This document shows positions 4,621-62,985 of a stretch of 64,000 bases of DNA, one piece after another. Within the stretch, counting starts at the first letter, position 1. Each line of letters opens with the position of its first letter. Below the pieces are notes generated by a model. That model made no database searches and was not told where the DNA came from. It saw only the letters and a list, made by a program, of their open reading frames with translations. A program made the translations under genes and the position numbers. Source of the stretch: Octopus vulgaris (Eukaryota); NCBI GenBank assembly GCA_951406725.2, contig OX597834.1, positions 4,836,001 to 4,900,000 of the forward strand, in the 5' to 3' direction.

Positions 4621-4870
4621 TGTGAAGTCGTGTGTTAAAACAGATATTGTTATATTTCGGAATGGTCATTTTGCTAGTTTAGCCAATAAAAACACACGCT
4701 CTATATATTTGGTGTTATTTTGCTTCAGTGTTATTTATTTTTTACATTAATCTTAATCTCATTTCGGCCAGAGTTCTTTCGTCACACTTCTGTGACCGCA
4801 TCAGTGGTCATTTGTTTTCTTCTTTCTTATTTGTGTCTCTCTTTACTAACCGTCAGCCATTTTGTATTTC
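4621..4870 (-). mobile_element. PLE-like non-autonomous repeat with hammerhead motif (family H2)
   Basis: Homologous to both arms at 32266-32677; minus strand CCA-CTGATGC-G-GTCACA/GAAG/TGTGAC-GAAA-GAAC-TC-TGG at 4766-4809; next to a TA tract. Confidence 0.75.
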
Positions 4871-5191
4871 TATTGTATGTCTTCATTTGCGCATGCTTAT
4901 ATCTCTATGTGCGTATATGTTTATTTAGTGTGTGTGTGTGTGGGGGAGATGCCTGTAATATTTGTATCTTCTGTTTATATACGTTCATGTAATTTGTTGT
5001 TGTTGTTGTTGTTTATATATATATATATATATAAATAGACAGATATATAGCTATATAGCTGGGTATATATAGAGTGTGAGAGAGGTATATAGAAATATAT
5101 ATATATATATATACTCATATGTATATATAAATATATACATATATATATATATATATATATATATATATATATATATATATATATATATATA

Positions 5192-5585
5192 TTTGGGTTC
5201 ATAAATCCGTTTTATAGGCATAATGGTGTAATATTCCATTATTTGAGTAAAATCCCAAAGTCCAACAGAGTTTAATATGAGTCCATCCAAATGTAAACTT
5301 TATAAGCAATGTAAGATTCTCTTATAGTTGGTCATTCCCAGTAGGGAATTTATATAGAATGTAGCAGATTCAAGGTCTTATGAACTCAATACCCATACAT
5401 GTCTTACATCTATTTTCTTTCCTCCACCTCAATCTCTATTTGTATCACATCGAAACTAACTATGACTTAATTTTTACTCTCACACTGTCTCCGGTGAAGG
5501 GATATTAGTCATTAATATTCTAGAAACAGCTGTAAGACCTATCTATAAATGCTCTAATATCTATATCTCATTACGCAAAAAATTA
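5192..5585 (+). mobile_element. Insertion in (TA)n with degenerate hammerhead motif
   Basis: GTCT-CCGGTGA-stem II-GAA-ACAGCTGT-A-AGAC at 5487-5538; long TA tracts on both sides. Confidence 0.55.
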
Positions 5586-6339
5586 TATATATATATATAT
5601 ATATATATATATATATATATATATATATATATATATATATATATATATATATATGTGTGTGTGTGTGTGTATAAATATATATATGAATATACATATATAT
5701 ATATATATGTGTATAAATATATATATATGAATATACATATATATATAAATATATATATAGGAATATATATATATATATATATATATATATACATAAACAT
5801 AAATGTATATATGTATGTATATCTCCTCTATGGAGCAGAAACATGCAAACTTGTAGCGTCACTAAATAATATTGAGAGTATTATCTTGTCAGCACGTTTT
5901 GCTCAAAACACTCATTAGCTACTCAAATCCATTAAACCAAACCAATCTTTTTAATATATTTACAAGCACTATAGTTATAGTTCCCTGAAGACTTGTTCTT
6001 ACAAAGCTCAGTCAGAGTTTTATAGCGTTAATCTCTTGTGATAATGAACTCTGAGATCGTACTTCAGAATATCAGAAAGAACTTGCGCATAATTCTACTT
6101 TAGACAAGGTATCTGTCCTAATTTCTATGGCGTTTGAATCTAGAAAGGAAGTAACTAAAACATAAAACAAAGTCCAGCTGCTTTATCATATAATTGGAAC
6201 CCAACAGAACTATAGAGGTTCACAAATTAATGCAGACACTCTAACAGTCGAAAGTTTTGACACTTATCTTGTCTCTGGGTATACATGAGTTCTTCTGCAC
6301 CTATGTTTGTGCAGTATATCAATGTATATAATGCATGTT

Positions 6340-58716: not shown

Positions 58717-61086
58717 TATATAATTCCACTCGTGCGGTACCCCACAACTCCACTTTGTTATATACATATATATATATATATATATATATATATATATATA
58801 TATATATATATATATATATATATATATATATATTATTATTTGTGTGAAATTTGATTTAGTATTTCGAAATTGAATTTTTCCCTGTAAGTTAGGATTAATA
58901 TTCCCTCAAATTATATATATATATATATATATATATATATATATATGTAAGCATTATATAAACGTGGGCAAATCTTTGGTGTTGAAAAAGGACTGCATGT
59001 TTATACTAAAGTGCTTAAAATTACCCAGAACTGGTGTATTTATATATGAGTGTGCATGTATATGTGTGCACTCACGCATGTTGGCGAACGAGGGCGCCAA
59101 TGTATAAATAAATTCCTTCAAACTTACCCAGTTTGTAATTCTATTTGAATTAGAGAAATCAAAATGCAACTTTTAGATAAACCAGCCTTAATGTTTAGCC
59201 GCATTTCTTCGCAGCAAAGAATAATTCAACAATACAATGGCAATTATCTTGAGACTATTGCAATTATATCTTCCACATTTTGTGAAGTGAATGTCAATAA
59301 AGGTTAACTTAGTTTTTAGAACCTTGTAAACGTTACAAAACAATACCGTTTGTCCTCCTTACTCTCCAGAGAAAAGCGATTCTCAATAATTGCTTCCTCG
59401 CCTGAATATATAATATAATTTGAAGTTAAATTTCAAGCTAAACTTTCATGTGTGAGCGCAATAATAGCAAACAAGAAAGAAAACTACACTTTTTATAATT
59501 CTAACATTTATTCACAATTTCATATTTAATATTTCTTGTGTGGCGTGTGTGTGTTTGTGTATCTGTGCTTGCGCGCGGATGTGTGTGTGTGTGTAGATAT
59601 GTGTGTGTCTGTGCGTGTGTGTGTGTGGTTATGTGTGTGTGTGTGTGTGTGTGTGTGTGTGTGTGTGCGTGATAGCGTGTGTACCAGTAGTTTAGGGTAG
59701 TCGGTCTTTGCAATATAAATATTATATGTATGCATATATGTATGTATGTCTAAGTTCGTACAAGTTTTTTTTATGTATGTGCGGTACATTCTTAATTTAA
59801 ACTATGATAGCGATTACTTTATTATAAATGTATCGATATTCGCATAAGTGGATATGTTATTGTATAAACTATCATTCATGTTACACACATATATTTACAT
59901 AATTATGCATATACACTTAGAGAGAAAGAGAGATGGGGAGATTGAGCACACTTATGCTCAAAGGCATCTACAATATGACCATCCGATTATTTGACAACAT
60001 TATCTCATGCATCACATTTTGTTCTTTATTTGAGGTGGCAGTATTTGTTTCCAGGGAGACATGCTACTCTTTCGAGTAAATTGCGATACACTATACAGTT
60101 TCTTACGTTGGTTTAAGTTTAATGACCTTTCTGTGTTAGCCTGTTTGTTTTAGTTTGTGTGTGTGTGTGTTTTTTTTTAGCTTGAGCAAAGGGAGAATTT
60201 ACAAACCGATTAAAACTTTAACATGACAGGGATTATCTTTGATGTAATTACTGGTTGTCTGAGAGAAGTCAAATCAAAATCTAACTCAAGAGACATTTTA
60301 ATTGAATATAAACAAATATAACAATTCTTGTCAACGATATCAGAACGATATTATAATATACAATCACAGACAAAAGAAAACCTATTTGAAACAACTTCAG
60401 AAAATATAAGCTCATTTTTAAAGAGAGATCAGAACATAGATTATTGAAAAATATCACCCGATCACTAAGCAAGACTTGAAAATTCAATCAGTTCAGTTTC
60501 AACTTATTACAAATATATTTAGATTTGCAGCACAGAAACTCATTCCAAACCATCGAGAAAAATTTTCCCAATGTAAACTTGGATCTTCAATAAAACCATA
60601 TAAAACTGCATGAAAATTACGACCTTCTTGGCAACTCCGATTAATAATGCCCACTATACAACTTAGGTCCTTAAAATCCTATTTGAAGAGCGTAAATCGA
60701 TTAATTCCATCTCAAAGTACACCAATATATCGATTAAATGCATTTAGAAAGAAAATGCAAACGATATTCAATTCGGATCCACTTTAAGAAAAAAAAGAAT
60801 ACATCCATAAATTACTGAGTCTTTCAGCAATATAAACTACATATATTCAATATGAGTGGGTTTGATAACCTTCGAATTGAAGAAGAACAGAATGGAAAGT
60901 ACTATTTTTAGTGACATCTGTAACTTGTAGGATTAGGAGACAGGTTCAATGATACATAAATATTGTTTTTTCCGTGTGACAGTTAAATCTTATATGAATG
61001 AGAGATTTATTAAGTATGACCAGGATAGGAGGACTTTAAATAAACTACTGCAGAGTAATAGGAGGGAATATTGAAGTTACAGAAAC

Positions 61087-61212
61087 CATGTAATACAGTA
61101 ATACAGTACAATAATAATACAGTACAATACTAATATTACAGTAATAATACAATAATACAGTACAATACTAATAATACAGTAATAATAATATAGTACAGTT
61201 ATACAGTACAAT
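61087..61212. repeat. Degenerate minisatellite (CAGTAATAATA/CAGTACAATA units)
   Basis: Direct reading. Confidence 0.85.
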
Positions 61213-62375
61213 ATATATAAGAGATCGATGCAGGGATTCATCGTATGTATGAGAATGATTGTAGAGACAGAAGAGGAAGCTTCAGTTGGAATATTCACGC
61301 TAAGTAATTAACTTTTAACCTGCTCTGTCATACCATGGTATAACCTTCCATAGTTCACCAAATATTATTGAAGTACTTTCGCAAAGCTCACTATTACTTA
61401 GTGAAATTCACTGAGTTCGACATTCAGAAGGTCCGCAGATATGTGGTTGTTTTTGAATATAGAAATCCTTTGGAGTTTTTAGTTTTTAGCCATTTGTATA
61501 CTTTTCATGCCGAATGTAGTAGAACGCCTATTTCGAAGGCGAGTCCTATTCGCCTGCTGCATCCAATCTATATTTCGAAGGATGAAAGGCTGCTGAAATA
61601 TTGTTGATCTTTGTTGATATTTCCCTTCCTGCCCTGTTTGGATTCGGTTTTGTGGAAGTGACCTTTGCCCAGCATATATTCCATCGTCGATGACTGATTG
61701 ACAAACATACATTTATATCGCTACAAGTGAAATTAATTTTCTTTGATTTATTGTGCTGAAATTACTCGTTATTAGTCTTTTTTAAACCCATTTCTGCTAC
61801 AGCTGGTTTAATCCAGTTTTAAGTGATTTCTAAAGAAGGAATTCTTAACCAGAATTAATTTGGTTAATTTTCATTAAAGCGTGGAATATTTTAGCAATGT
61901 GAAAGTTAACATATTAAAGGAAATTGATGTCTGAATCGGATAACAGCGTGGCATCCATTTATTAAATACATACGAGTCAAGGATTATAAGTGATTTTGTC
62001 TTTAAATCCGATAGCTCATAGTGCTCTGCTACGTAATAAAGTTTGTGTTCTTTACTATATCTGTCAAAGTGGTCAACAATGAGTCAATAATGAATATTTT
62101 CGTAACTATCACGTGATCACTTACTTGGTAGCGTTTTGATGGTAGTTGCATTAATAGTGTTATTAGTGTTTTAGCTTTGATTTTTCTCCTGTTAATGGCA
62201 TCTCGAGATCATTAAGATTGTAGACGCTGTTTTGGACAGAAATGTAGGCTTATTCATTTACCGTATAACACATCTATTTTTATTATTTCGGTATGTTGCA
62301 GAGTATGTTTCACTGAGGTCATCCCCCAGATCAGTGTCTAAAACTGTCTCTCTTACAGACAAACTTATGAAAATA

Positions 62376-62985
62376 TTGGCTCTGTGATAAAAAGCCTGCT
62401 TCCGGGTTCAGTTCCATAATGTGGCACTTTGAGCAAGCGTCTTCTACTATGGGGTCGGGCTGACCAAAGCCTTGTGAGTGAATTTGGTAGACAAAAACTG
62501 AAAAGAAACCCGGCGTGTACACACACACACACACACACACACATATATATATATATACATAATTGATCGTTAGCTACTACACTCATTTTTTTCTCCCCTT
62601 TTTTCTCTCCTTGTTTCTCTCCTTGTTTTTTCTGTGTATCTTTCTGTCGAAGAGCGTAGGCTCGAAACGTAATAAACTTTTTCTATTCCTGAGCGCTATA
62701 CTAATATATTTGTTTGTTTGTACTCCACCTGCCTTCGTCTTTTGTTTATTTTCGTAAACTTTCCCTATATATATATATATATATATATATATATATATAT
62801 ATATATATATATATATATATATATATATATATATATATATATAGTGTGTGTGTGTGTATCTTTGTGTCTGTGTGTGTCCTCCTCCACCGCTTGATAACCG
62901 GCGTTGATTTGTTTGCGTTCTCGTAACTTAACGGCTCAGCAAAAAATATTGATAGCATAAGCCCCAGGCTTAAAAAAAGTAAGTA
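62376..62985 (+). mobile_element. Diverged SINE A with an insertion in its microsatellite
   Basis: Head half 62376-62518, second half from about 62860. Confidence 0.75.
62558..62765 (+). mobile_element. PLE-like insertion with degenerate minimal hammerhead
   Basis: CTGTCGA-A-GAGC/GTAG/GCTC-GAAACGTA at 62644-62671; flanked by TA tracts. Confidence 0.55.

Follow-up and report, generated by a model that had tools for sequence, protein, structure and literature searches.

Hammerhead motifs and the elements that carry them

The window, meaning the whole 64-kb stretch of octopus DNA that was analysed, harbors a hammerhead-like motif at all 12 coordinates given in an earlier note on this DNA, whose site numbers mark the lower-coordinate boundary of each motif (Table 1). 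The note had spoken of at least seven families, and blastn of the listed sites indeed resolved eight sequence groups. The 12 sites amount to 10 insertions because 26116/26204 and 58048/58631 each belong to one inverted-duplicate insertion; an inverted partial copy, 5'-truncated and lying beside the 5' end, accompanies five of the 10.

Table 1. Elements, hammerhead motifs and associated features in the window
Feature	Position	Strand	Nucleotide 3	Core and remarks
PLE ORF fragment, region before RT domain	2979..3284	+		adjoins no motif
Family A element, ~250 bp	4617..4869	-		
Family A motif (site 4766)	4766-4809	-	4804	damaged: A9>C
Decayed motif (site 5487)	5487..5538	+	5491	damaged: U4>C and A6>G; 9-bp helix II; palindrome ACAGCUGU
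Additional candidate C3:G8 motif	8576..8663	+		score 23.5; palindrome ACAAUUGU; absent from earlier list
Target-site duplication, left copy, 11 bp	17558..17568	+		
Family G high-copy short element, 203 bp	17569..17771	-		depth steps and loose ends at 17569 and 17771
Optional 3' tail, ~57 nt	17569..17626	-		second copy class ends at 17626-17631
G3:C8 minimal type I hammerhead (site 17710)	17709..17761	-	17753	intact, G3:C8; descriptor score 36
Target-site duplication, right copy	17772..17782	+		1 mismatch
C3:G8 hammerhead (site 21211)	21216..21298	+	21222	intact, C3:G8; long loop II; palindrome ACGCGCGU
Family B inverted pair within (AAT)n tract	26000..26398	.		two U3:A8 motifs
Family B motif (site 26116)	26116-26155	-	26150	intact, U3:A8
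Family B motif (site 26204)	26204-26242	+	26209	damaged: G12 missing
Family A inverted 5'-truncated copy, joined to 5' end of full copy	32262..32438	-		G8, A9 retained
Family A element	32439..32681	+		
Family A motif (site 32500)	32500-32543	+	32505	damaged: G8>A, giving C3:A8 mismatch
Diverged family B copy, 75-81% alike	40372..40618	+		
Its U3:A8 motif (site 40405)	40405-40446	+	40411	damaged: U16.1>A
Family D old inverted pair	47355..47564	.		
Family D motif (site 47478)	47478-47535	+	47485	intact, C3:G8
Family C inverted copy	58001..58102	-		
Family C motif (site 58048)	58048-58092	-	58086	intact, U3:A8
Family C copy terminating in (TA)n	58621..58760	+		
Family C motif (site 58631)	58631-58675	+	58637	intact, U3:A8
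Decayed motif (site 62640)	62638..62677	+	62644	damaged: A6>U; weak helix I; helix II GAGC/GCUC; palindrome ACGU
Third family C copy, decayed, 71% alike	63802..63937	-		G3:A8, G12 lost; absent from earlier list

A type I core (N3-UGA-N-N8-A / GAAA / UH, with a Watson-Crick 3:8 pair and three helices) was found at six of the 12 sites. These six cores are intact, and the other six are damaged. A palindromic stem III, described earlier as usual, is perfect at eight sites (five of them with an intact core), the exceptions being family A, 40405 and 47478 (ACTAAT); 17753 and 21222 each combine a palindromic helix III with G10.1-C11.1 and one additional nucleotide behind A9. Among the individual families, the three family A copies share the non-palindromic stem III AGAACT and a majority core of CUGAUGA, with a different single core lesion in each copy, while helix I of family B continues beyond an internal loop, which may place this family nearer to the canonical type I hammerheads than to the minimal ones. 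The 5' end of the diverged family B copy bears an inverted stretch of 38 bp; an apparent helix I compensation at 40405 was discounted as ambiguous, with the arm falling on the inversion junction. The motif at 58631-58675 has U-U at 10.1/11.1 and the palindrome ACCGGU, and that at 47478-47535 has a broken helix II.

Might these motifs resemble hammerheads by accident, in a genome rich in AT and in repeats, and have been chosen because they match a pattern? With a descriptor in which N3 and N8 were free, the window gave 10 matches at a score of at least 20 (eight sites of the earlier note plus 8581 and 23704, with two pairs of sibling copies among them), vs. a mean of 0.69 and a maximum of 5 in 200 block dinucleotide shuffles; none of the 200 equalled the observed count, at this or any other threshold, and the departure from shuffled sequence on which the earlier note had staked its claim is therefore upheld. 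Two sites score 36-37, whereas no shuffle reached 30, and sibling copies carry the motif at the same place. Watson-Crick pairing at 3:8 was seen in nine of the 10 window matches vs. 94 of 308 shuffle matches scoring at least 18. In favor of chance, the descriptor was tuned on its own matches, being a fourth version loosened once sites had been seen (the strict first version gave 0 matches in the window, the second 6, and the third, at a score of at least 25, 4 vs. 0.25 in 40 shuffles), and the weak sites 5487, 62640 and 23704 could be accidental; 23704 (A3:U8, U4>C) was in fact treated as a probable chance match. Likewise, no hammerhead reached the Rfam gathering score among the 150 of 201 whole-window matches listed or at three sites searched individually. 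The hammerhead motifs in the window are nonetheless real, and the chance explanation is already disfavored, to the point of being very improbable.

The Rfam result also bears on the claim that searches with fixed cores overlook swapped ones, and it agrees with that claim: the C3:G8 site at 21216-21298 matched Hammerhead_1 only below threshold (15.9 bits vs. a gathering score of 34), while the G3:C8 site and the family B (U3:A8) sites gave no hammerhead match. The whole-window Rfam matches are dominated by microsatellites, and the MIR395 and MIR161 matches were dismissed as merely inverted pairs.

The family G element and its G3:C8 core

The G3:C8 hammerhead lies near the 5' end of the family G element, other copies of which reach ~5 nt further at that end. 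It consists of an 8-bp helix I, the core GUGAACA at 17753-17747 followed by the extra nucleotide, a 5-bp helix II opening with G10.1-C11.1, GAAA and the palindrome AAUAUU; U17 is at 17717, with the cut predicted between 17717 and 17716. The insertion is common to organism B, and related organism E has the empty site (record 9 joins 17557 to 17772). The second 3' end, which leaves out the tail, is represented by 52 contigs in X1 at 17626, 24 in X5 at 17631 and records 13-15 of X14. Loose ends fall at 17569, ~17626, 17761 and 17771, the 5' end being fixed; (TA)-rich sequence lies past the 3' end of copies, and loose ends beyond the element had no common continuation (agreement 0.45). Opposite-strand joints run from the element interior to 17767-17771, as inverted truncated partners, whereas those linking 17709-17714 to 17761-17765 were left uncounted as inversions and may reflect helix I itself. 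Only family G was followed beyond the window, and it is in this family only that the PLE-type insertion features were seen, namely 3' ends of two kinds, loose ends rich in (TA), an 11-bp duplication and an empty site; the other families had no clear target duplication outside simple repeats. The summed contig depth of family G is 10^4-10^5 times that of its flanks, which gives an order of magnitude only and not a copy number. A tRNA was found neither by ARAGORN anywhere in the window nor by Rfam across 17560-17800, but the ordinary SINE heads of the window escape both programs as well.

With respect to the core, G>C changes at a frequency of at least 10% were absent in X1 and X16 (the latter only a guessed RNA run that may hold DNA), and the single one in X5 sits in the flank; position 8 is therefore not G in family G. 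Because these tallies exclude C8-to-G at 10% or more in three runs, G3:C8 is likely the core of the family, a deduction from tallies (40 of 120 per-position rows listed, the core rows not among them) that leaves room for G>A at position 8, resulting in G3-U8. A second family G copy retains the G3 and C8 letters, and we surmise that the flipped pair likely arose by compensating changes. Contigs from metagenomes, viruses and prokaryote genomes contained no match to the exact 24-nt motif of the family. A natural G3:C8 was not found in the literature searched, a coverage without Lünse 2017 and Przybilski 2007, and searches by position and by sequence likewise gave no earlier finding.

The AAUAUU helix III duplex contributes only -0.2 kcal/mol and lengthens into a palindrome of 10 nt in which U17 would be trapped; helix III did not form in the cofolded dimer of the motif, and the whole 203-nt element folds no better than shuffles (z 0.36). 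Depth falls twofold close to where the cut is predicted, but this was rejected as a sign of cleaved templates because a similar drop occurs at the other element end.

Relation to PLEs, and competing readings

The earlier note took the elements to be short, hammerhead-bearing retroelements of the Penelope-like element (PLE) kind, and several findings speak for this: inverted 5'-truncated partners, the inverted partial copy being a PLE hallmark (PMC8557442), a target duplication, an empty site, an optional tail and a PLE ORF fragment, with PLE protein fragments occurring in this genome. The link of each family to an RT/GIY-YIG PLE that it proposed to look for was not seen within the window, where no PLE ORF is physically continuous with a motif; 2979-3284 was the only match to a profile built from 11 long PLE-like proteins. 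A Pfam search of 24 of the 170 stop-to-stop frames returned DDE_1 as the sole match below E 0.01.

Among the closest known systems are the minimal hammerheads that metazoan PLEs carry in their pseudo-LTRs (Cervera & de la Pena 2014, PMC4209133), Cercyon of S. mansoni providing an example with U3-A8. These and the window motifs are alike in: 1) type I topology, together with three features that the descriptor did not demand (palindromic helix III, G10.1-C11.1 and one more nucleotide behind A9), a match that supports kinship; 2) dispersed single copies and opposite-strand pairs 100-700 bp apart; 3) many families per genome and U3-A8 cores. The differences reside in the G3:C8 carrier, with its fixed 5' end, where the published motifs instead run into an ORF, and an abundance far above those families (tens to a few thousand copies). 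Its core is also absent from the 56 motifs of Fig. S3 in that study (53 CUGANGA, 2 UUGANAA, 1 UUGAAGA; no cephalopod included). U3:A8 minimal hammerheads in PLEs were already published, with ~1,300 matches in Schistosoma mansoni (PMC4209133); what is new here is the G3:C8 site. Natural U3-A8 covariation and a tolerated U10.1-U11.1, which the U-U of family C resembles, are described in section 8 of Perreault et al. 2011 (PMC3088659), a section that names no natural G3-C8 of the sort present in family G.

The Poseidon element PAc of Anolis (Frangieh et al. 2024, PMC11167929) is autonomous, and its natural core is C3:G8; it resembles family G in a hammerhead ~100-150 nt from the 3' end, AT-rich targets and an optional 3' tail, which in PAc comes from two RT start sites. 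The optional tail and AT-rich targets of family G match PAc biochemistry (PMC11167929), although its tail of 57 nt exceeds the published 30-40 nt. In PAc the C3G/G8C pair is engineered and only partly rescues activity (PMC11167929), whereas the pair in family G is natural and its element has no ORF.

A third related system is that of non-LTR retrozymes, which are thought to be PLE-derived and PLE-dependent (PMC7229834, Cervera & de la Pena 2020; Li et al. 2026, 10.64898/2026.07.22.740005) and have tandem arrays and circular RNAs as their defining features, the hammerheads being canonical as a rule (PMC7229834; 10.64898/2026.07.22.740005). The window elements could be their solo monomers, scattered by reverse transcription of unit-length circular RNAs that were cut by the ribozyme from tandem arrays elsewhere. 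Both are short, non-coding and type I, the ~200-250 bp units fit, solo monomers occur with monomer fractions ranging from 0 to 1, and the long helix I of family B looks canonical; in addition, the joints listed for X1 include a single head-to-tail one (17752 to 17574), and X16 held 1,809 family G contigs. However, no family forms a tandem array within the window, the tandem joints among those listed are at single-locus depth, and the ends of family G are fixed, neither variable nor permuted at the cut site. We consider this origin improbable, slightly more so than a non-functional ribozyme.

In that latter reading, the repeats derive from PLEs but the ribozyme is a passenger, and G3:C8 happened to sit in one master amplified for its RT-binding 3' part; copy number would therefore be uninformative on cleavage. 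PLE hammerheads cut poorly in vitro, and in vitro PAc can insert with no need of cleavage (PMC4209133, PMC11167929), ribozyme-dead PAc RNA inserting normally (PMC11167929); genomic copies retain sequence 5' of the cut site, the top-ranked loose ends listed include none at 17716, helix III is very weak, and half of the 12 copies are damaged. On the other hand, G3:C8 calls for two specific transversions, while the rest of the core and both helices I and II show no damage, and the three groups with non-C3:G8 cores are all Watson-Crick at 3:8. We thus regard a mere passenger as unlikely. Support for the 3:8 covariation claimed earlier comes from these three groups, two of which are both U3:A8, perhaps by shared ancestry. 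Since six of 12 cores are damaged, single copies decay, and any selection acted on master copies; selection on swapped cores, as the earlier note proposed, does not apply to the copies, with only masters left as its possible target.

Taken together, we favor as the probable explanation that several unrelated short repeats are non-coding derivatives of PLE ends copied by PLE proteins, with a ribozyme predicted to be slow and swapped 3:8 pairs likely kept by selection on masters only. Counting against this explanation are the lack of any motif abutting a PLE ORF, the weak AAUAUU duplex and the dimer without helix III. We postulate that the inherited hammerhead would be a slow cutter, acting in dimeric form or assisted by protein, and would trim tandem or read-through transcripts of masters. 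The PLE endonuclease would nick AT-rich DNA, and the RT would copy uncut RNA through the ribozyme, with an occasional template switch producing an inverted truncated copy; the optional 3' tail would arise because the RT has two alternative priming sites close to where the RNA ends on its 3' side. Genomic copies would thereafter decay neutrally.

Implications for cephalopods and PLE biology

Because the general phenomenon was already known, the result extends it and overturns nothing. A more tentative proposal, modeled from the above and somewhat doubtful, is that octopus genomes contain tens of thousands of copies of a PLE-dependent, SINE-like retroelement of ~205 nt with an active natural G3:C8 hammerhead, a core previously only engineered. 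If true, U3:A8, C3:G8 and G3:C8 in one genome would constitute a natural covariation series for PLE-type cleavage under selection, and a large class of hammerheads would escape CUGANGA and Rfam searches, such that censuses based on either would undercount hammerheads in cephalopods. Family G, short and ORF-free, is a candidate substrate for PLE trans-mobilisation assays, and a family of 10^4-10^5 copies with a swapped 3:8 pair would provide statistical power on whether the catalysis of masters is selected.

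Hammerhead motifs and the decay of their cores

In the window (GC content 34%, animal-like, and rich in microsatellites and SINE-like repeats), the earlier note had located hammerheads at twelve positions in at least seven non-homologous families. A hammerhead-like motif is indeed present at all twelve, which blastn sorts into eight groups and, by comparison within the window, into 10 insertions; however, only half of the cores (6/12) are intact with a Watson-Crick pair between positions 3 and 8, the remaining six being damaged (see the table). With the fourth version of our descriptor, in which N3 and N8 are free and which was relaxed once the sites were known, 10 matches scored at least 20, whereas 200 local dinucleotide shuffles of the window averaged 0.69 and never exceeded 5. 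With two sibling pairs among them, these matches come down to 8 independent groups; we believe the one at 23704 to be a chance match. Two sites scored 36-37 while none of the 200 shuffles attained 30, and the previous descriptor version yielded 4 matches at 25 or above vs. 0.25 in 40 shuffles. The 3:8 pair was Watson-Crick in 9 of the 10 window matches (score at least 20) vs. 94 of 308 shuffle matches (at least 18). Rfam Hammerhead_1 matched 21216-21298 at 15.9 bits, under the cut-off of 34, and its scan of the G3:C8 and family B sites gave no hammerhead match.

Family A comprises two ~250-bp copies with identical ends and one inverted truncated copy, with CUGAUGA as the majority core and a different core lesion in each full copy; its stem III (AGAACT in all three) is no palindrome. 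UUGAUAA was found in all three family B copies, one of them just 75-81% alike, and helix I of this family continues beyond an internal loop. Family C is an inverted pair with core UUGACAA, plus a third, decayed copy (G3:A8, lacking G12), and family D, another inverted pair, is old; altogether, an inverted partial partner accompanies 5 of the 10 insertions. The six damaged cores, with lesions differing among copies, indicate that copies decay, and the proposed selection on swapped cores would thus not act on the individual copies themselves. Counted for selection were the Watson-Crick 3:8 pairs in all three non-C3:G8 groups, a small sample in which B and C perhaps share common descent, and the route to G3:C8, which takes two transversions with the remainder of the motif intact.

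Hammerhead-like sites and other repeats of the window
Position (strand)	Family or feature	Observation
4766	A	A9>C
5487		U4>C and A6>G
17710	G3:C8	intact core, G:C at 3:8
21211		intact core, C:G
26116	B	intact core, U:A
26204	B	G12 missing
32500	A	G8>A
40405	B	U16.1>A
47478	D	intact core, C:G
58048	C	intact core, U:A
58631	C	intact core, U:A
62640		A6>U
2165-2345, 6340-6560, 10615-10830, 22125-22560, 24990-25400, others	abundant SINE-like repeats, two or three families, many copies	read by us as octopod, presumably tRNA-derived CORE-type SINEs
26400-27600 (-)	decayed, stop-interrupted gag zinc knuckle and protease motifs	presumably LTR-retrotransposon-like; no relevant Pfam match in four frames
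42398-43199 (+)	DDE_1 transposase remnant	Pfam E 1.6e-15
47974-48279, 49079-49351	frames taken to resemble 3' ends of LINE reverse-transcriptase ORFs	no Pfam match
50149-50260	short inverted pair	74% alike
50698-50951, 52299-52474	unnamed short repeat, two copies adjoining (TA)n	GAAA then near-palindromic 9-mer; fails hammerhead descriptor
57100-57390	copies inverted to each other, 84% alike, with (TA)n tracts on either side	UUGAUAA-like word near 57350, no GAAA half downstream; possibly a further truncated U3:A8 element
57425-57490 (-)	CUGAAGA, 6-bp helix II and GAAA, lacking both helix I and a palindrome	possibly a decayed PLE-type hammerhead

An abundant short element with a G3:C8 core

The G3:C8 motif lies within a 203-bp repeat (17569-17771, minus strand). 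On aligning contigs from four runs to 17250-18200 (80% likeness), we found 22,516 matching contigs in organism A, 17,027 in B, 6,775 in E and 1,809 in a run of A guessed to be RNA (X16). In run X1, which may derive from the same sample as the window, summed depth rose from 41-45 in the flanks to 2.3-5.0 million across 17570-17761; summed depth is no copy number as such, and we put the family at roughly 10^4-10^5 copies. An empty site was found in organism E, where one 3,783-nt contig links 17557 straight to 17772, and an 11-bp target duplication with 1 mismatch (17558-17568 and 17772-17782) is seen in the window. A contig of organism B passes from the flank into the element, suggesting that this insertion is probably common to the window and organism B.

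Loose ends at the 5' side pile up at 17771 and 17761, with a brief common extension before agreement is lost (0.45), which indicates that most copies end there with no ORF beyond. At the 3' side, they gather at 17569 and at 17626-17631, making the ~57-nt tail optional, and (TA)-rich sequence lies past the 3' end. Positions 17638, 17643, 17668 and 17702 were joined on the opposite strand to 17767-17771. The ends of the element are partly complementary, such that a head-to-tail or circular junction could make a small hairpin, and several long contigs end within the ribozyme at 17713-17736.

The 40 variant rows listed, out of 120, all fall outside the element; core frequencies were deduced from tallies of changes at 10% or above, C8 being the plus-strand G at 17748 and G3 the plus-strand C at 17753. 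The tallies held zero G>C and zero G>T in X1 and X16, and a single G>C along with three G>T in X5, all in listed flank rows; G8 and A8 must therefore each lie below 10% in three of the four runs (X1, X5 and X16), while U8 may occur via a plus-strand G>A at 17748. X16 had no C>G at this level, and we infer that the one C>T and the one C>A of this run most plausibly fall at 17762 and 17644, since loose-end letters there depart from the window. Together with one further copy whose letters retain G3 and C8, these tallies make G3:C8 the likely family core, as judged from sequence.

Penelope-like signatures and predicted activity

At 2958-3290, a protein fragment shares 88% identity with one that its source attributes to Octopus vulgaris, which makes an octopus the probable host. 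Of 12 long relatives of protein P0001 scanned with Pfam, 5 weakly matched RVT_1 or, at the C-terminus, GIY-YIG; in the two relatives inspected, motifs of RT and GIY-YIG were recognisable, identifying 2979-3284 as a fragment of a Penelope-like element (PLE) ORF. A profile of 11 PLE-like proteins found nothing else significant in the whole window, leaving every motif without a physical link to a PLE ORF; the proposed PLE dependence is instead based on insertion signatures, namely truncated partners in inverse orientation and a preference for (TA)n, as described for PLE insertions in PMC8557442, and the optional 3' tail and AT-rich targets described for PAc, the Poseidon PLE of Anolis, in PMC11167929. 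Most likely, a PLE RT-endonuclease acts in trans, copying these short RNAs from either of two priming sites close to the RNA 3' end and reading uncut RNA straight through the ribozyme; master transcripts would be cut slowly by the predicted hammerhead, either as a dimer via palindromic helix III or with protein assistance.

Several data argue against strong G3:C8 activity. The helix III duplex AAUAUU is worth -0.2 kcal/mol, vs. -13.3, -8.3 and -4.6 in three other families, and lengthens to a 10-nt palindrome in which U17 would be paired; helix III is absent from the cofolded dimer (-32.0 vs. 2 x -14.5); and in PAc, according to the part consulted of PMC11167929, a double swap at 3:8 gives partial rescue only and insertion in vitro does not need cleavage.

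Within the portions consulted, minimal PLE hammerheads with opposite-strand pairs and low dimer activity, and ~1,300 U3-A8 matches in S. mansoni, are described (Cervera & de la Pena 2014, PMC4209133), and natural U3-A8 and U10.1-U11.1 are reported (Perreault 2011, PMC3088659). The 56 motifs of the alignment seen in PMC4209133 include neither G3:C8 nor any cephalopod. Our literature search, which covered few subscription papers, turned up neither a natural G3:C8 nor any paper on octopus hammerheads; likewise, no natural G3:C8 was met in the parts consulted of 10.64898/2026.07.22.740005, PMC6765202, PMC3884650, PMC7229834, PMC10085705, PMC7761336, PMC4758252 and PMC8967140. A natural G3:C8 may already be in print. 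The survey of Lünse (2017) is reportedly the largest of such hammerhead variants. The motifs are real and their biology is mostly known already; the novel part, on sequence grounds, is likely a natural G3:C8 predicted hammerhead carried by a short PLE-style element of fixed length and very high abundance.
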